This document shows positions 2,881-10,393 of a stretch of DNA of 10,772 nucleotides, in pieces. The notes beneath the pieces were generated by a model. That model was not told the origin of the DNA, ran no database searches, and saw only the letters and a list, made by a program, of their open reading frames with translations. The translations under genes were made by a program, and so were the position numbers. Position 1 is the stretch's first letter. Every line of letters starts with the position of its first letter. The DNA is from a virus: UHGV virus genome UHGV-1443384; one strand, written 5' to 3'.

Positions 2881-3921
2881 TTAACCAATGCGAACGGTAA
2901 CAAAACGATTGATGCGGGCCGGTATTGGTTGCGGTGCGCTGTGCGTCTGTACATATTCAATAGCCGGATCACCTGGTACGATGTAATTTTTCGGCGCAAG
3001 TTCGGCTTTAGTCAGCCCCATTCTGATTAACTCAGGATCCTGAATGCCACCGTAGGCAACGATGCCCTGTAATGATGTGTTGCCAAGCACCATCAAATCA
3101 GGATCAAGGAAATATTTTTCTTTGCCGTCCTCGTCGGTATAACGTCCGCTATATACCACAATAGCAACATCGCCAACGTAACCCTTGAAGCTTACAGAAT
3201 CCCCAAGATTTTTCAGGGCCGTTTCAAGAACGGAATTAGATCCCCGTCGAGTATCAAGGCAATCTTTTACTGCTTTAAAGGCGCGGTATTTTTTCCATAC
3301 GTTGCGGCCCATTACGATGATATTTGTAGTACCTTCGCTGATTTCTGCGTACTCTTCGATGTCATCGTTTGGATCAAATGTTGATAAATCTCTACCGCTC
3401 CACTCCGTGCCGCCGGACTGCGTGATAATATTTTGTGGTTTTATATTCCAGTCCAGTTCATAACGTTCAATTCCATCACCTTCAATGATATTTTTCCCCG
3501 TTGTAACCGCCTGAACAGCAAGCCACTCAATACGCGCACGAATTGCCTGCGCTTGTCTTACTAACGCTCGCTTTATTTTGAAACTGCGTGATGAATATGC
3601 ATTGAATTGTTCAGGTGATACGCCTGGTTGACGAACGGCTATTTTATTTGGGTCGATACTACTTTTTGGCTTCATATAGCCAGGGCGAATTACTTTTGAT
3701 TCGTAGCCTTCATCGCGTGAGACTTTACTACCAACCATAGGGGAACAAAATGCAGCCATCGGGATGTCTGGATCGTCAATAATATCAAGCGCAATATCCC
3801 GCGTCTCAAATGTAACGACTCGCTTAAAAAACAGGTTTATAAATAAAGAATTAATCTGCCATTGAATATCTTCGGCATTAACAACCTGTATTAACATGGC
3901 TGGCGAATATAAATCACTCAT
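2881..3921 (-). CDS. Major capsid protein, lambda gpE-like (346 aa)
   Basis: Collinear similarity to lambda gpE over the full length (NIITQSGGTEWSGRDLSTFDPNDDIEEYA vs NNITQSGGTEWSKRDKSTYDPTDDIEAYA; FKAVKDCLDTRRGSNSVLETALKNLGDSVSFKGYVGDVAIVVYSG vs FKAVKEKLDTRRGSNSELETAVKDLGKAVSYKGMYGDVAIVVYSG). RBS AAGAGG. Confidence 0.9.
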   Translation of the reverse strand: MSDLYSPAMLIQVVNAEDIQWQINSLFINLFFKRVVTFETRDIALDIIDDPDIPMAAFCSPMVGSKVSRDEGYESKVIRPGYMKPKSSIDPNKIAVRQPGVSPEQFNAYSSRSFKIKRALVRQAQAIRARIEWLAVQAVTTGKNIIEGDGIERYELDWNIKPQNIITQSGGTEWSGRDLSTFDPNDDIEEYAEISEGTTNIIVMGRNVWKKYRAFKAVKDCLDTRRGSNSVLETALKNLGDSVSFKGYVGDVAIVVYSGRYTDEDGKEKYFLDPDLMVLGNTSLQGIVAYGGIQDPELIRMGLTKAELAPKNYIVPGDPAIEYVQTHSAPQPIPARINRFVTVRIG

Positions 3922-4904: not shown

Positions 4905-5131
4905 TTCACCTGTTCACCTTTTGAGATTTTCCCTTTTTATTCATAATGTTAAGGGGTGAACAGTTTCACAAAAACTATTCACCAACTGTTCACCACTGTT
5001 CACCCTTAAAGCTCAATAAATAATCAAAAAGGTGAACAGTGAATAGTTTGGTGAACAGTTCACAAATAACTGTTCACCATATAATATACTGATATAAAAG
5101 ATATTTATAACAGGGTGAACAGTGGTGAACA
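4905..5131. repeat. Replication origin with P4 alpha-type iterons (about 10 copies of TGTTCACC / GGTGAACA, both orientations) and AT-rich unwinding stretch
   Basis: Octamers at 4911, 4955, 4987, 4998, 5031, 5050, 5071, 5114 and 5124, plus partial copies. AT-rich block at 5080-5110. Immediately downstream of the primase gene. Confidence 0.8.
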
Positions 5132-5145
5132 GTTATTCCATAAGT

Positions 5146-6963
5146 TTAATTTTTGCTGTCGTCATTTGTGACCGATGCACATGATGGCATCCAGTCTTCT
5201 GAATCCTCTGTCAGTGTCACATTTGAACGCAAACCGTGCTTCGTTTTCCGTTTTATATACTCCCTGCCATATTCCGCCATTGCCCCCGGCATATCTTTAC
5301 CGAAGCGCGTCAGTGTTACAGGTTTACCGAATCCGTGTGCCCTCATATATGCCAGATAGGCGTGATAAAGATACCTGCGCGGACTGAACGGAATAATTTC
5401 GGCATTACCCACTAACAGACCATCACACATTACCGACGACATGAGATAGCCACAGAAGTCCACCAGCGAATCGCCCTCGCGTTTTATCACCAGAGCTTCT
5501 TCTGATTTCTGCTGCTCATACAGCAGGCGTTTAGCTTCGTCCTGGTCAGAAAAACGAGTAAGCAGATGGCGAATCACAACCGCCAGCTCTCCTTCTATTT
5601 TTTCTGCCAGCATGGGGTCGCGCTCGTTCTCCGGTACAACCTCCGAAAAATTGAATATCACCCGACGACGTGAGATCCCCCCGCTGCGGTCACTGAATGA
5701 CATGGCGTTATTGTTCACCGCCAGCACGACCGCCTGAATGCGTGTTGAGTAGGGGGCTTTATGCTTCGGGTCGATTGCCACCTTGTCACCGCCTGTAATA
5801 GCCTTAATTCCTGCGCCATCACCAGCGTAGCGGGTCATATCCGGCATGATAATCAGCGAAAAGCCAACCACTAACGCGCGTTCCCTTGCATCTTCCAGCG
5901 CCTTCATGCTTGCCGATACTGTGTTGGCCTTACCCGCCAGCATGGTGCAAATCTCCGCCATCACGCTTTTACCACTTCCCCCTGGACCTGTTACCTCAAT
6001 GAATAACTGCCAGTCGTACCGGTTCGCCAGCACCATGAATAATGCAGCCAGCACGCGATCCGTCTTGCGGTCATTCTCTGCCACCGAGCAGCGTAACCAC
6101 TTCCAGAAATTCGGCGCATGTGTTGCCAGCGTTTCCCCCTCTGCTGGTGGGCTGAAAGGTAATTCACTGGCAATTAACAACCAGTCGTTTTTGTTATGCT
6201 CCCGAAAATTACCTGTTCTGGTATCAAATACCCCGTTACTGAATCCAATCAGGTTACGGGCTGTATTCCCCATTACAGGCAAACTTAACTTCATGGTATC
6301 GACCGCCGATTTAATGGCGTTCTGCGAATAGCTGATCTCCGCATCAATGAAAATCTGTGCCATAGCTCGCTGTAATTCTTTATCCTGTACTGGCTCCCAT
6401 ACAACGCCGTTGTAATGGTGAACAGTGTCAGAGTCAGCATGAATCGCCAGTTCACCGCCATAATGTGCCAGGAGAACTTCGCCGCGTTGACTTGCTCCCA
6501 TCTGGTTAAGCGCCAGTGATGAAGCGTTATCGTCTTTTACCCGCTCTTTTTTCTTTACAGGCAGTTCAACTACCTTTTTCTTTTCCGTCAGCTCTCCCCG
6601 CTCACGTTCCAGATATTCGCGCCAGTTCTCCCGTTTCTGGCTGTGCATTCCTTCAGGGTAATAATCAGCATCCCTGACACCTGCCGCTGCCAGTTTCTGC
6701 CCGATGGTATTAACAAGCCCCGGACGCAATAACCCCGCCTGATAGAGACGCACGCGATAGCGTCCGTCCGGTACGATTTGCAGGTTGTCCAGTTCGGCAA
6801 GTTGTTGCTCTCCAAGCCAGACAGGTGGCACGTTATCGCCAGCCAGTCGCCCGTCCTGTTCCTGCCACTGTTTCGCATGTGCCCACGCATCACTACCCGC
6901 AAAAATGATGACTTCCGTCATTTTGTCACGCGGCTGGTGTTTTAAATTTGGCGCTTTTTTCAT
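5146..6963 (-). CDS. DNA primase/helicase, P4 alpha-like (PICI pri-rep type)
   Basis: Walker A motif VTGPGGSGKSV in the central region; large size; adjacent TGTTCACC iterons. Start set at the ATG (6963) preceded by GGAGAG and overlapping the upstream stop; the track ORF begins at GTG 6978. Confidence 0.85.
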   Translation of the reverse strand: MKKAPNLKHQPRDKMTEVIIFAGSDAWAHAKQWQEQDGRLAGDNVPPVWLGEQQLAELDNLQIVPDGRYRVRLYQAGLLRPGLVNTIGQKLAAAGVRDADYYPEGMHSQKRENWREYLERERGELTEKKKVVELPVKKKERVKDDNASSLALNQMGASQRGEVLLAHYGGELAIHADSDTVHHYNGVVWEPVQDKELQRAMAQIFIDAEISYSQNAIKSAVDTMKLSLPVMGNTARNLIGFSNGVFDTRTGNFREHNKNDWLLIASELPFSPPAEGETLATHAPNFWKWLRCSVAENDRKTDRVLAALFMVLANRYDWQLFIEVTGPGGSGKSVMAEICTMLAGKANTVSASMKALEDARERALVVGFSLIIMPDMTRYAGDGAGIKAITGGDKVAIDPKHKAPYSTRIQAVVLAVNNNAMSFSDRSGGISRRRVIFNFSEVVPENERDPMLAEKIEGELAVVIRHLLTRFSDQDEAKRLLYEQQKSEEALVIKREGDSLVDFCGYLMSSVMCDGLLVGNAEIIPFSPRRYLYHAYLAYMRAHGFGKPVTLTRFGKDMPGAMAEYGREYIKRKTKHGLRSNVTLTEDSEDWMPSCASVTNDDSKN

Positions 6964-7259
6964 TTCTGCTCTCTCCACGCGGCAATCATGTTTTTCAGTT
7001 CCTGTAGTTTTTTATCAACATCCATACATGACACATGGTTATTTCTGGAAGGCGGGATTTCCCGCCGGAATCTGCTAATAAAGATCTCCACGTTCAGCGA
7101 ACTATGAAATGAATAGCCATCACGAATAAAATACACACGGTCAAACATCAGTTCTTTTACCGTTACTCTGTTACCGTTCTTATCCAGATAAATAGCGCCG
7201 GGGATAATTTTGGGGTGTGCATAACCGCTGGCAGTCAAGCCAGATAAATATGTTCTCAT
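6960..7259 (-). CDS. Hypothetical protein (99 aa), coupled to the primase
   Basis: Track ORF; TGA stop overlaps the primase ATG. Occupies the position of the small genes upstream of alpha in P4-like elements. Confidence 0.55.
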   Translation of the reverse strand: MRTYLSGLTASGYAHPKIIPGAIYLDKNGNRVTVKELMFDRVYFIRDGYSFHSSLNVEIFISRFRREIPPSRNNHVSCMDVDKKLQELKNMIAAWREQK

Positions 7260-7265
7260 GATTAT

Positions 7266-7586
7266 TTATCCCCGATTTGAATCAGTATTCGCTTTCTTTA
7301 TGGCATTTAATGCATCTGTGGTATTTTCAATGGTGCACCGTAACGAAATATCAAACTGCCCAAGCATTGCCAGTAACAAACCGATATTACCCATATCAAT
7401 GCGCATGGCCTTTTCGTCATAGTCCTCATTTTCTGACGCATGCCACATCAGGCTACCAATTGACGCAATACCCATTGATATATTGTCAGTAGCCCCATCC
7501 GCAGCGGAATAAACCTTTTTAGCAATATCATGCTCACAGTTAAAATGCGGATTAATCAGGTACTGGTAATTTGACATATCAGGCAT
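7266..7586 (-). CDS. Hypothetical protein (106 aa)
   Basis: Track ORF; strong RBS AGGGGG before the ATG at 7586; acidic protein. Confidence 0.55.
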   Translation of the reverse strand: MPDMSNYQYLINPHFNCEHDIAKKVYSAADGATDNISMGIASIGSLMWHASENEDYDEKAMRIDMGNIGLLLAMLGQFDISLRCTIENTTDALNAIKKANTDSNRG

Positions 7587-7782
7587 GGCACACCCCCTGA
7601 CGAATACGGGCAGCGAATACCATCACGCAGCCAGCCGGAGATTGCTGGCGTGCTTCCTGTTCGCTGGTGGCCTCAATGGTAATCACGCGCGGTTGTGCCG
7701 TGCTCAGGGCGATAAAACGCCAGATGTATTTATTCAGGTTGTGCGAGTCCCGCCCTTGCGGGTGTGTGGTATGATTTCTCAT
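7579..7782 (-). CDS. Small protein (67 aa), possibly Icd-like (host cell-division inhibitor family); first gene of the primase operon
   Basis: Internal ATG at 7782 with RBS GAGGTA within the spurious 359-aa track ORF; stop overlaps the next start. C-terminus ...SPAGCVMVFAARIRQGVCHA recalls Icd-like proteins from memory only. Confidence 0.4.
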   Translation of the reverse strand: MRNHTTHPQGRDSHNLNKYIWRFIALSTAQPRVITIEATSEQEARQQSPAGCVMVFAARIRQGVCHA

Positions 7783-7880
7783 AGCTACCTCGATACTTTC
7801 GCTATCGTTGGTGGTTAGACGCCCTGCATGTGTTGCGAGCACTGCGGGGCGTTGCTTAATTTGAGTGACAAAACTCAAAC

Positions 7881-7959
7881 TGTGCGCACAGATTAAAATC
7901 ATGTGTGCGCACATGTCAATACTTAACATCTCATTTTTTTTGCTGTATTGTGTGCGCCC
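7881..7959. promoter_or_regulatory. Divergent promoter/operator switch: TGTGCGCACA palindromes at 23-bp phasing overlapping back-to-back promoters
   Basis: Perfect TGTGCGCACA at 7881-7890 and 7904-7913 (inside the 16-bp palindrome catgtgtgcgcacatg), half-site at 7950-7959. Minus strand TTGACA-17-TTTAAT has one operator in its spacer and one at the start site. Candidate plus promoter TTAACA-17-TATTGT. Confidence 0.5.
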
Positions 7960-7987
7960 ATAAAGTCCATTTAAGTGAGGTGCATCA

Positions 7988-8185
7988 ATGTCTAGCGGTA
8001 ACACAAACAACAAATCAGCAAAGAAAAATATTCGATTCCCACATGAGCTTATAGATGGGATTGATGCCAGCGTTGAACAAGAAAAATTAACTAATCCTAG
8101 TGCTAATTTTTCCGCATGGGTCTTAGATGCCTGTGGACGCAAATTAAAATATGAACAGCGCCGGAAGGCCAAAGAATCAGAATAA
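7988..8185 (+). CDS. YlcI/YnfO-family (DUF3950-like) small protein, possible ribbon-helix-helix regulator (65 aa)
   Basis: Strong RBS GTGAGGTG. Motif NIRFPHELIDGIDASVEQ...NFSAWVLDACGRKL resembles E. coli prophage YlcI/YnfO proteins (NIRFP...NFSAWV..AC.RRL), recalled from memory. Confidence 0.55.
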   Translation: MSSGNTNNKSAKKNIRFPHELIDGIDASVEQEKLTNPSANFSAWVLDACGRKLKYEQRRKAKESE

Positions 8186-8242
8186 TCACTATCAGCGCCG
8201 TGGTGTGAGTAACTACGGCGCATTGCTATGCAGGGCAACACA

Positions 8243-8416
8243 ATGACCGATAAAGAATTGACCAAAACATTATCACCGACACGGAAAAGACGGCGCAGAA
8301 AGATAGAGCATGAATCAGAAAGATTCGCACCTTGTTCGTTTGCTCTTGAGAAATTCCTTAAAGAGCGCAGGAAAAAACTCTCGTTGCAAACCTTGGAACG
8401 AACCGAATCTGACTGA
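8243..8416 (+). CDS. Hypothetical highly basic small protein (57 aa, RKRRRRK tract)
   Basis: Downstream of the YlcI-like gene in the same orientation; operon ends at the terminator at 8481-8508. Weak RBS; the start could be the ATG at 8228. Confidence 0.35.
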   Translation: MTDKELTKTLSPTRKRRRRKIEHESERFAPCSFALEKFLKERRKKLSLQTLERTESD

Positions 8417-8480
8417 TCAAATTGCCCACCAGCCAGCAAATCGCTATGATGTTCGGGCTTATGTTTAGTGTTTTCCCATT

Positions 8481-8508
8481 GGCGACCGCCCCCGGTCGCC
8501 TTTGTTTT
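8481..8508 (+). terminator. Rho-independent terminator, plus strand (GGCGACC gccccc GGTCGCC followed by TTTGTTTT)
   Basis: 7-bp GC stem with T-rich tail, between the plus-strand two-gene operon and the convergent alpA. Confidence 0.6.
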
Positions 8509-8527
8509 ATGTGTCATATGCTCCCCT

Positions 8528-8737
8528 TTACGCTGCCTTTCCTGAATTAATGCGATCCCGGCTTTTAACCCATTCCATAACCTCAGACTTAACCCAGCCA
8601 ACCGAACGACCTCCAAGACTGATACGGGAGGGAAAGCGGCCTTGTTTTTCCATCTCATAACGAGTTGTACGGCAAACGCCTGTTAGCTCTCTGCATTCTT
8701 TTTCACGGATTACACGATCTTCATTTATTTCGCGCAT
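8528..8737 (-). CDS. alpA: AlpA-family transcriptional regulator / excision-associated HTH protein (69 aa)
   Basis: Motif RVIREKECRELTGVCRTTRYEMEKQGRFPSRISLGGRSVGWVKSEVMEWV fits the AlpA pattern. Start taken at the internal ATG (8737); the track ORF extends to GTG 8821. Lies downstream of int as in PICI and P4-like elements. Confidence 0.75.
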   Translation of the reverse strand: MREINEDRVIREKECRELTGVCRTTRYEMEKQGRFPSRISLGGRSVGWVKSEVMEWVKSRDRINSGKAA

Positions 8738-9154
8738 AAAAAGCCCTACATAAAATTTACGTATAGAAATTTTTGTTTCGCTGTGGATATACGGGAAGGA
8801 ATACTTCTTAGCTTTTTTCACCTCTTAAATTGAATACGTAACCTTTCTGAACTTTATGTTCGTCAAAGTTCGCTAGAGTTTGCTGCTGTTCATAAAATCG
8901 TGTCACGAGTTTTTAAGCGACGCAACAAAAAATGTCGTCATTTGGTATGATACTTGAATTATCTTATTAAAAACAAATAGATAAACCATCAGGTGTTGGA
9001 ATAATCAAGAAACAGAAAATAAGAACTCAGAAGAAGATATTTCAATTTTTTCGATGGTTGACACATATAAAGTGAAGATATTTGCAGATATTTTCCGATA
9101 TTCTACGATTTATTCACGGCTGTAATCTCTTAAAGAAAAAACAGCCGTAATTTG

Positions 9155-10393
9155 TCAAGAATTTTGGGTGTAAATTCGCGGGGTCATAACAACGATTTTT
9201 TCATCATTGTTCTGGAGAAGCTCGAGACGGTCTACCCATAGATTAAGAGCATCACGTTTTGCATCAAGATAGCGGGAGTGGTTATAGACTCGTTGCATCC
9301 CTGGCATCTGGTGGGCTGTAAGCTGCTCGACAATATGCGGATCCACGCCTAAATCGTTCAGCATGGTTGTAAATGTGTGCCGGATATCGTGTAACGTCCA
9401 GGGGGCTTGATTAATTCGTCTGTGCGCTGTTCTTCCGTACTCTGCTACCGAAGATTGTCCTTTCAGTTCACCAAGCAATAAGCCCGTGTGTCTGTTCTGC
9501 TCCACCAGCTGCGTGATGAACGGCAAAATGCTTTCCGGTATTGGCCTGAATATGGCGACCTTCGTTTTGCTGTGCTCCTTCGGTACCGTCCAGAGCATTT
9601 CTTTAAAATCCCACTCCTGCACCTCAGAGCGCCTTAGCTCGGTGGTACGGCATCCGAAAACAATCAGGAGGCGAATTAGGGCGCTGTAGTACGGCGGGAA
9701 TATTTTGTCATCCAGGGCGCGGAGTAATTCCCCAAGCTCCTTGTTTGTTAGTACGCGCTCGCTCACTTCTGCTTTTTTTCCCACATCACCGACAACCATA
9801 TCATCAAGAACGTTGCTGATTGCGTATCGTCGTTTTCGGCAGTACTTAAGCGCCTGTTTACATACCTGTAGCAAAAATCCGGCAGATACTGGGCTTCGCT
9901 TTGCCATCTGGTCAAAACATGCCAACCAGTGCCGTAGCTCGCATTTTTCCAACGGCATAGCGCCAATCTGGCTGATTATGTGTTTATTGATCCGGCTTTT
10001 CAGTGATTCGTAGTCAGTGCGCTTTTCCTTTGCATACGATTCAAGCCAGTAAGTGAGCGCTTCCTTAACTGTCACGGGGGCTAACGCATCCTGTACAGCA
10101 CGATTAAGCTCATAGCGCGGATTTTTCCCCTCAGCCAGCCAAGCGCGACACTGTGCCGCTTTTTCCCTGGCTGCTTTCAGGCTCAGATCGGGATAATTGC
10201 CCAGTCTCAGACGTTCCGGTGATACCTGCCTACCAGTTCCAGCCCTGTAAGTGAAATACCAGGTTAACAGGCCGCTGGTGGAATGTCTTACGCTAAGATT
10301 GCCACCGTCATTAAAAAAGGCGTTTTTTGTGGTTGGTGATCCGCTTAATTTTCGTAAAAGAGTGTCGCTAAGTCTATGAATTGCGCTGCTCAT
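9155..10393 (-). CDS. int: Tyrosine site-specific integrase, P4-type (412 aa)
   Basis: C-terminal catalytic motifs WTLHDIRHTFTT (H-x-x-R) and RVYNHSRYL (catalytic Tyr); size and N-terminal arm-binding-type region typical of the P4 integrase family; adjacent to the attR arm repeats. Confidence 0.9.
   Translation of the reverse strand: MSSAIHRLSDTLLRKLSGSPTTKNAFFNDGGNLSVRHSTSGLLTWYFTYRAGTGRQVSPERLRLGNYPDLSLKAAREKAAQCRAWLAEGKNPRYELNRAVQDALAPVTVKEALTYWLESYAKEKRTDYESLKSRINKHIISQIGAMPLEKCELRHWLACFDQMAKRSPVSAGFLLQVCKQALKYCRKRRYAISNVLDDMVVGDVGKKAEVSERVLTNKELGELLRALDDKIFPPYYSALIRLLIVFGCRTTELRRSEVQEWDFKEMLWTVPKEHSKTKVAIFRPIPESILPFITQLVEQNRHTGLLLGELKGQSSVAEYGRTAHRRINQAPWTLHDIRHTFTTMLNDLGVDPHIVEQLTAHQMPGMQRVYNHSRYLDAKRDALNLWVDRLELLQNNDEKIVVMTPRIYTQNS

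Follow-up and report, generated by a model that had tools for sequence, protein, structure and literature searches.

What keeps the early genes of a phage satellite silent, and by which protein or RNA? The question is raised by positions 7783-7987 of the virus genome UHGV-1443384 (10,772 nt, called the window here at its full length), which lie between a minus-strand operon headed by a short Icd-like gene (icd below) and the plus-strand gene ylcI. The window is a phage satellite. The original prediction, made from the letters alone, had placed operators and divergent promoters in this region and left the repressor among the YlcI-like protein, a basic 57-aa protein and a helper-encoded factor. 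Comparison of related loci makes it probable, at roughly two chances in three, that 7783-7987 is the immunity core of the early operon of a P4-like satellite of the phage-inducible chromosomal island (PICI) type, with three superimposed control layers: a repressor on three operators, an antisense RNA and a long translated frame. On this reading the palindromes serve as genuine operators of the satellite's repression switch, and YlcI is the protein that most likely binds them.

Operators and promoters of the switch region

The elements of the switch and the genes that it separates are:

7579..7782, minus strand: Icd-like / P4 Kil-like short gene of 67 aa, preceded by a Shine-Dalgarno sequence of its own (GAGG at 7791..7788)
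7860..7879: inverted repeat TTTGAGT-N6-ACTCAAA, read from the sequence, a putative 5'-proximal hairpin of the P(icd) transcript
7880..7891: operator O1, CTGTGCGCACAG, spanning the last -10 base and the predicted start site of P(icd)
7890..7895, minus strand: inferred -10 of P(icd), TAATCT, of a PLE-like promoter inside a long open reading frame (ORF)
7903..7914: operator O2, GTGTGCGCACAT, within the promoter spacer and abutting the -35 of P(icd)
7914..7919, minus strand: -35 of P(icd), TTGACA, its TTGAC invariant or nearly so in 36 loci
7923-7928 and 7946-7951, plus strand: P(ylcI), TTAACA and TATTGT 17 bp apart, from the promoter scan
7950..7961: operator O3, GTGTGCGCCCAT, 9/10 of the palindrome, overlapping the -10 end and the start site of P(ylcI)
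7988..8185, plus strand: ylcI, 65 aa, DUF3950/YlcI-YnfO
8243..8416, plus strand: orf57, small basic protein, co-transcribed with ylcI
8481..8510, plus strand: intrinsic terminator of the ylcI-orf57 unit from the scan, an 8-bp stem with 7 GC pairs followed by TTTGTTTTAT; the minus strand has no T-run there

The two perfect 10-bp palindromes of the original prediction were confirmed: TGTGCGCACA occurs exactly at 7881-7890 and 7904-7913, with centres 23 bp apart, where 0.01 copies were expected, and none of 200 shuffles reached two matches. The predicted third half-site, 46 bp further on, is present but is a full site, a 9/10 copy (TGTGCGCCCA, 7951-7960) whose centre lies 47 bp from that of O2. 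The description of the operators as phased is doubtful, as 23 bp corresponds to 2.2 helical turns and 47 bp to 4.5; promoter geometry seems to dictate the distances between sites.

For the minus-strand promoter, TTGACA-17-TTTAAT had been proposed. Both hexamers exist (7919..7914 and 7897..7892), but they are separated by 16 bp and the -10 was misplaced; TTTAAT is not called by the promoter scan because it lacks the A at position 2. In the 36-locus alignment, A2 (7894) and T6 (7890) of TAATCT are invariant, so that TTGACA-18-TAATCT combines the hexamers, the 16-18 bp spacer and the conserved A2/T6 expected of a sigma-70 promoter and is the predicted P(icd). The divergent plus-strand promoter for the YlcI-like gene was recovered by the scan as TTAACA-17-TATTGT; its -10, TGTAT(G/T)GT, is conserved in the same alignment and its -35 poorly so. 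The position of O3 on the -10 and start site of P(ylcI) fits autoregulation. Hairpins analogous to that at 7860..7879 adjoin O1 at other loci.

Operator cores change in concert across genera

With YlcI homologues we collected 12 loci from other genera and 52 viral-contig loci, which together contain about 50 distinct upstream regions and range from Escherichia to Pasteurella; the loci are interrelated, and the counts given here are not independent events. All of the approximately 50 distinct loci share one plan, with O1, then O2 set against an invariant GTCAA (the -35 TTGAC), and O3 directly after TGTAT(G/T)GT. The prediction that the replication operon is headed by a divergent switch under operator control is therefore supported, since its promoter elements and three operator positions are kept across genera. 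Each operator is a 12-nt frame, GTG-N6-CAC, with constant flanks and a 6-nt core that varies between loci (for example TGCGCA, TTTAAA, TGCACC, CGGCCA and TTGGGG); the operator sequences of differing immunity types include TGTGCGCACA, GTGTTTAAACAC and GTGTGCACCCAC. Within a locus the cores differ by 0.64, 1.55 and 1.52 mismatches per six positions, whereas sites of different loci differ by about 2.9, and no shuffle (0 of 2000) reached the observed agreement. The three separate sites change in concert.

The block icd-operators-ylcI-orf57 (7584-8441) is 98.7% identical to that of E. coli SCU-125, where it lies inside an otherwise different satellite, and it behaves as one module that moves between satellites. 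An E. coli O26 element carries a YlcI variant with GTGTGTTTCA sites, and an E. coli O157 element has in the same slot an unannotated Arc-like gene, unrelated to ylcI, with its own two GGTAATTACC palindromes. Both the O157-type and the O26-type module have a different operator in the O2 position, again against GTCAA. The number of operators also varies: locus L024 (~2360-2500) has an extra 23-bp unit and hence three upstream sites, and locus L028 (~2400-2500) has lost one unit, with O1 and O2 fused.

YlcI as the candidate repressor

Operator distance was compared with four neighbouring sequences in 29 loci by Mantel comparison. The operator cores tracked YlcI residues 2-14 (r=0.67, p<=2e-4) and followed neither YlcI from residue 15 to the end (r=-0.08, p=0.88), nor the Icd-like protein (r=-0.02, p=0.63), nor the leader DNA that touches O1 (r=0.02, p=0.35). 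Because these neighbours do not track the cores, linkage alone cannot explain the association. Mutual information with the cores was highest at YlcI residues 5, 11, 12 and 14, and N7, S10, I15, R16, F17 and P18 are invariant. As core type tracks only residues 2-14, YlcI looks like an Arc-like ribbon-helix-helix (RHH) repressor with a hypervariable specificity arm. Among the candidates named at the outset, this co-variation strongly favours YlcI as the protein that most likely binds the operators; the 57-aa protein is found in 15 of 66 loci, and a helper or host factor would have to account for several operator types within E. coli.

Membership of YlcI in its family is clear from PF13132 (28.3 bits, cut-off 25) and NF041551 (59 bits, cut-off 30), and its RHH fold is probable. 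The AlphaFold2 model, a monomer in which the N-terminal strand, formed only in a dimer, cannot appear, is extended over residues 1-18 with helices at 19-33 and 41-64 (predicted local distance difference test 81-88 in the helices), which gives the beta-alpha-alpha layout. Alignment of YlcI 9-27 with Arc 6-24 by hhalign placed IRFPHE on LRWPRE at a probability of just 5.7%; in this weak alignment YlcI 12, 14 and 16 fall on Arc Q9, N11 and R13. CopG_antitoxin was matched by 3 of 83 remote YlcI relatives, the Pfam Arc and RHH models were not matched by YlcI, and neither Foldseek nor a sequence search of solved structures (PDB) gave a match. These lines of evidence for the fold are consistent, though each single test is weak. 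A literature search on YlcI/DUF3950 and Icd-like proteins returned nothing functional. Lambda-type phages (lambda-like O276, L066 200-394, and lambda records) carry near the right genome end a YlcI homologue of 43% identity with the IRFP and NFSAWV motifs.

The product of orf57 (57/62 aa) looks like a real small protein, since its core EHESERFAPCxFxLExFLKE is conserved in homologues that are 50-68% identical and differ by in-frame indels; it occurs in E. coli-type modules only. As the repressor it was rejected, being absent from 51 of 66 loci that keep the three-site architecture and diverging to 50-66% identity while the operators stay identical. The Icd-like protein, suggested by its PHROG label, was also rejected: the label traces to the P4 'cI' ORF, and the Icd type is uncoupled from the operator type.

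A predicted antisense RNA gene over the icd start

The left 80 bp of the region form a predicted separate gene, that of an antisense RNA. Its elements would be:

7767..7775, plus strand: extended -10 of the antisense RNA, TGgTATGAT, inside Icd-like codons 3-5 of the other strand
7782..7860, plus strand: cis-antisense small RNA of about 79 nt, a predicted transcript with structure from covariation
7782-7817, plus strand: stem-loop 1, complementary to the icd AUG and Shine-Dalgarno sequence
7818-7853, plus strand: stem-loop 2 (predicted terminator), a GC-rich hairpin with a U-rich tail to 7862

The RNA would be complementary to the entire leader, the Shine-Dalgarno sequence (7791..7788) and the AUG of the short icd-like gene. 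In the window the plus strand folds at -38 kcal/mol (z -5.1) and the minus strand at -24 (z -2.6), and across loci the plus strand is always the more stable (35 of 35), with a mean difference of 11.8 kcal/mol. Of the 24 pairs given by RNAalifold, 16 show compensatory changes, and 95.6% of cells are paired, against 83.2% when shuffled and about 40% with partners slid. On the plus strand 111 cells are G.U and 3 are A.C, which argues that the structure is selected on the strand antisense to icd. All 33 of 33 loci have a TAnnnT hexamer at one fixed place, 12..7 nt ahead of the 5' end of stem 1. Coding constraint does not explain this fixed distance, since the icd start codon itself is found in either of two registers that differ by 7 nt. 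A promoter, a structure on the antisense strand and an intrinsic terminator are thus all predicted from the alignments, as for a cis-antisense small RNA.

A covariance model of the RNA scored 71.5 bits in the window and matched the plus strand in all 69 related sources, including loci outside the training set (Pasteurella Pmp7, the O26 and O157 elements), and found nothing in P4 or in a lambda-like phage. In Rfam (all 4227 models, among them C4 RF01695, isrK RF01394 and sar) nothing matched 7782-7860 on either strand at E<=1; the RNA had no match in the phage collection, and a literature search with strings of its sequence returned nothing functional. Of the 205 bp, the first ~74 bases are the most strongly conserved in E. 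coli, where they match 1441 of 5426 genomes. A C4-type RNA had been the first guess because Icd-like genes follow c4 in P1. An immunity RNA of the C4/CI/isrK type was rejected: C4, isrK and c4-a1b1 gave no match in the window at E<=1, nor at gathering score in 16 related loci, and in P4, the positive control (74.9 bits), the Rfam models detected C4 and also the isrK and seqA elements. Locus L024 has a second copy of the antisense RNA at 3066-3144.

A long minus-strand frame crosses the whole unit

The region is not a plain intergenic spacer, as a conserved frame that appears to be translated also crosses it:

8528-8821, minus strand: alpA (P4 Vis-like), Pfam Phage_AlpA 1.6e-17, also phrog_2790, to which P4 ORF88/Vis belongs; the upstream coupling partner of the long ORF, with its stop at 8530-8528
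8517..7579, minus strand: eta-like long ORF, 312 aa, with ATG at 8517 and Shine-Dalgarno sequence GGGGAG, 11 nt past the alpA stop, as expected of P4-type coupling to the upstream gene

From its start the long ORF passes orf57 and ylcI in antisense, next the operators, the promoters and the RNA gene, and its last part is the Icd-like protein; the 67-aa gene (7782..7579) is nested in phase within it. Over 735 nt of the window this frame contains 0 stops where the other frames contain 15 and 22, and an open frame was seen in 0 of 20000 shuffles. The frame in phase with icd is free of stops across the 'intergenic' and ylcI antisense region in 25 of 31 loci; in 3 more a single other frame is open, and the remaining frames have 2-12 stops each. 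Its starts are preceded by Shine-Dalgarno sequences and overlap or follow the stop of the upstream gene, with ATGA/GTGA overlaps in at least 11 loci. The amino-acid sequence itself is not conserved: replacements score BLOSUM -0.75 to -0.86 in the long ORF and +0.04 to +0.56 in YlcI, and upstream of the Icd-like end no family match was found. ylcI lies entirely within the long ORF on the opposite strand with third codon positions coinciding, and orf57 is in the same register.

Absence of stops together with an unconserved sequence is a selective signature; in the manner of P4 eta, the long frame would be translated and may keep upstream transcription from Rho termination. That the frame is a meaningless shadow of ylcI was rejected on the 0 versus 15 and 22 stops, the 25-28 of 31 open loci and the coupled starts. 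The converse, that the long ORF is the true regulator and YlcI an artefact, was rejected on the substitution pattern and on YlcI existing alone in lambda.

Annotation of the region is inconsistent. PGAP gives a 116-aa 'Icd-like' protein that starts inside the promoter region (L013 8797-9147); the Pmp7 record (L067 4435-5109) labels the long ORF 'transcriptional repressor' and omits ylcI; and in the O157 record (L070 2638-3231) the long ORF is marked as a pseudogene and the Arc-like gene is missing. The label 'transcriptional repressor' derives from the old P4 'cI' ORF annotation.

Alternative explanations

The palindromes might be bound by another factor (the 57-aa protein, a helper-phage protein or a host regulator) while YlcI does something else, which we regard as unlikely. 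orf57 is basic, apparently a real gene and co-transcribed with ylcI, lambda-type helpers encode a YlcI homologue, and GTG-N6-CAC bears a loose likeness to CRP or LacI-type half-sites. Yet the distribution and divergence of orf57 do not follow the operators, a host factor cannot explain them because several types (TGTGCGCACA, GTGTGTTTCA, GGTAATTACC) coexist within E. coli, and the cores track the YlcI arm specifically. That the region does no more than encode a long Icd-like protein or 'transcriptional repressor', its repeats spelling Cys-Ala-His twice and regulating nothing, is very improbable: the open minus-strand frame, its coupled starts and its annotation as a gene by PGAP and in the Pmp7 record agree with it, but the replacements in the long ORF and the lack of a family match upstream of the Icd-like end do not, and what is conserved instead are the -35/-10 bases, the operator flanks and the RNA base pairs. 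Coding and regulatory roles are in any case not exclusive, because the homologous arrangement of P4 is known to be both (PMC10111431).

A role of the conserved hairpins (7782-7853) in the leader of the minus-strand mRNA, be it that of a thermosensor, a processing site, a translational operator or a same-strand RNA like C4/CI, is likewise improbable. In its favour, the immunity RNA of P4 and P1 is encoded on the same strand, upstream of kil/icd, the icd Shine-Dalgarno sequence is flanked by the hairpins, and the minus strand still folds at z = -2.6; against this, the 111 plus-strand G.U cells become A.C mismatches on the minus strand and only 3 cells reverse, the plus strand is more stable at every locus and alone has a U-rich tail after the second hairpin, the plus-strand -10 box keeps its distance throughout, and the Rfam models C4, isrK and sar do not match, though C4 was detected in P4. 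A minus-strand intrinsic terminator made of the O2 palindrome and a T-run, guarding against upstream read-through in place of a protein site, is scarcely credible. The scan does list CATGTGCGCACACATG and ATTTTAATCT as terminator-like on that strand, but the O2 stem has only 6 bp with 3 GC pairs, other immunity types have in the same position non-palindromic cores such as GTGCACCCCCAC that can form no hairpin, and terminator-like sites in the scan are no more numerous than in shuffles.

Some observations count against a YlcI switch combined with an antisense RNA and a translated frame. P(icd) has a poor -10 (3/6) and a spacer of 18 bp. In 3 to 6 of the 31 loci, the frame that is in phase with icd is not open. 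The U-tail of the antisense RNA is interrupted (UUGCUUAAUUU), which makes its termination efficiency uncertain. The nucleotides of the YlcI arm also encode part of the long ORF, and because of these shared nucleotides co-variation alone cannot exclude the long-ORF product; only the substitution pattern does. The whole case is comparative.

Proposed mechanism

The region reads as a variant of the P4-type immunity region in which a protein repressor and an antisense RNA would replace the CI RNA. In the first layer, to which co-variation points, a YlcI dimer made from P(ylcI) would bind the three GTG-N6-CAC operators. On O2, in the spacer next to the -35, and on O1, at the -10 end and start site, it would shut P(icd), and RNA polymerase would therefore be excluded from the icd-like, 106-aa, DUF4222 and primase genes; on O3 it would cover the -10 and start site of P(ylcI) and so regulate its own synthesis. 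Specificity would reside in residues 2-14, the hypervariable arm giving rise to discrete immunity types.

In the second layer, whose structure is drawn from covariation, the antisense RNA would be transcribed rightward from the -10 inside the first icd codons and end at the hairpin and U-tail about 20 nt before the P(icd) start. It may block translation of the Icd-like (Kil-like) protein on leaky P(icd) transcripts, which would then decay or be terminated by Rho. The third layer is suggested by homology with P4 eta/kil: transcription of the alpA unit would be translated without interruption through the stop-free frame, the ribosomes would protect the transcript from Rho, and P(ylcI) would be traversed by polymerase. 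Helper induction of AlpA would thereby flip the switch, overriding both YlcI and the antisense RNA. A published report, in which the function of the gene after alpA is given as unknown, found that alpA overexpression alone induces a capsid-forming PICI (cf-PICI), and the third layer agrees with it. Induction by operator release alone, the implication of the original prediction, is not supported by known satellite biology, in which induction goes through AlpA-driven read-through from upstream, as with PLL/eta of P4 (PMC10111431).

Comparison with known immunity systems

In P4, kil forms the end of eta, which also contains a constitutive promoter, and translation of eta lets upstream transcription escape termination (PMC10111431, citing Forti et al. 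1999). P4 and the window share the gene order (AlpA/Vis homologue, long ORF ending in 65-67 Kil/Icd-like codons, small ORFs, P4-type primase), the internal promoter upstream of the short gene and the translational coupling of the long ORF to the alpA homologue. The Icd-like protein matches NCBIfam phage_ICD_like (1.4e-19) and phrog_1743, which also matches residues 73-137 of the P4 eta/kil ORF; P4 Kil and the short protein of the window thus share this family (5.5e-24 and 7.5e-21), although direct BLASTP is weak (E 0.063). P4 differs in having CI (C4-family) RNA, seqA and isrK, none of which was found here or in 16 related YlcI loci. Conversely, the long ORF of the window contains a candidate repressor gene in antisense, its internal promoter carries three operators, and a cis-antisense RNA is predicted from the opposite strand. 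The long ORF has 312 aa here and about 199 in P4, its N-terminal part here lacking a family match.

The immI region of P22 encodes the RHH repressors Arc and Mnt, divergent promoters Pant and Pmnt, and the sar antisense RNA over the ribosome-binding site of the controlled gene. It resembles what is predicted for the window, a small repressor on operators that overlap divergent promoters and a short cis-antisense RNA over a ribosome-binding site, and YlcI aligns, at the low hhalign probability given above, with Arc over the beta-strand and the start of helix 1. In contrast to P22, no Rfam sar match was found here, Icd/Kil-like and replication genes are controlled rather than an antirepressor, and the whole unit lies inside a putatively translated ORF. 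P1/P7 immI consists of c4 RNA, icd and ant, the RNA blocking the icd ribosome-binding site. An Icd-family cell-division inhibitor stands first in the controlled operon there as in the window (NCBIfam phage_ICD_like), but P1 c4 is a same-strand RNA that works in trans against a repeated target, whereas the window RNA lies on the opposite strand and does not match the C4 model. Stl of SaPI, in Gram-positive PICIs, is a large helix-turn-helix repressor that is inactivated by binding helper proteins; as proposed for the window, SaPI has a repressor divergent from the replication/packaging operon that keeps the island silent. Gram-negative PICIs are described as AlpA-activated (PMC11773190), and for their control only the activator AlpA is named in the searchable literature.

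The satellite and its other features

The remaining genes of the element are:

9155-10393, minus strand: tyrosine integrase
beyond the Icd-like gene, minus strand: 106-aa ORF and DUF4222 protein
5146-6978, minus strand: D5/P4-family primase; SSB is also on the minus strand
minus strand: major head, decoration and TerS genes

With its integrase, AlpA, D5/P4 primase, SSB, major head, decoration and TerS genes the window has the set expected of a PICI or cf-PICI, an island of ~10-16 kb with int, alpA, primase-replication and capsid/packaging genes; portal and protease genes are not in the window.

Directly downstream of the primase gene, 4908-5137 holds at least 10 iteron copies (ACTGTTCACC/GGTGAACAGT) in both orientations and probably serves as the replication origin; the iteron repeats also account for the Rfam microRNA 'hits' at 4960-5073. 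An imperfect inverted repeat of ~87 nt at 1996-2082, between the TerS gene and a second AlpA-like gene, would form a long hairpin on both strands and could be a packaging site or terminator. The second AlpA-family gene (2176-2520), at the far end of the element, adjoins the packaging genes and recalls the excisionase-like alpA_1 of EcCIMP1 (PMC11773190). In E. coli SCU-125 (L013 1008-2129, 12285-13277) the satellite with the identical switch module interrupts the gene for the large terminase subunit of a prophage, the halves of which flank it, a helper-embedded PICI configuration of the kind described in PMC10111431. The Rfam int-alpA RNA motif RF02996 was found in L006 5827-5892, L043 4786-4855, L063 4637-4702 and L064 4717-4783, and gave no match in the window at E<=1.

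Significance

Parts of the module match 1441-1786 of 5426 complete E. coli genomes, and the module is present in at least a quarter of them. Enterobacterial phage satellites carry defence, virulence and resistance genes between hosts. It is possible, at somewhat less than even odds, that YlcI and the antisense RNA are the missing element-encoded immunity system of the large class of Gram-negative PICI, cf-PICI and P4-like satellites. If so, the repression side of the Gram-negative PICI switch would be supplied, and the view that the AlpA activator alone controls these satellites would need revision. DUF3950 would gain a function, including its copies in lambda and the K-12 prophages, and the antisense RNA would be a new small RNA family, absent from Rfam. 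Systematic annotation errors in the region would be exposed, and three overlapping codes would be seen to share 200 bp, namely protein on both strands, operators and promoters, and RNA structure. Discrete immunity types would arise by coordinated change of the YlcI arm and three operators, and the satellites would hold a natural set of orthogonal repressor/operator pairs.

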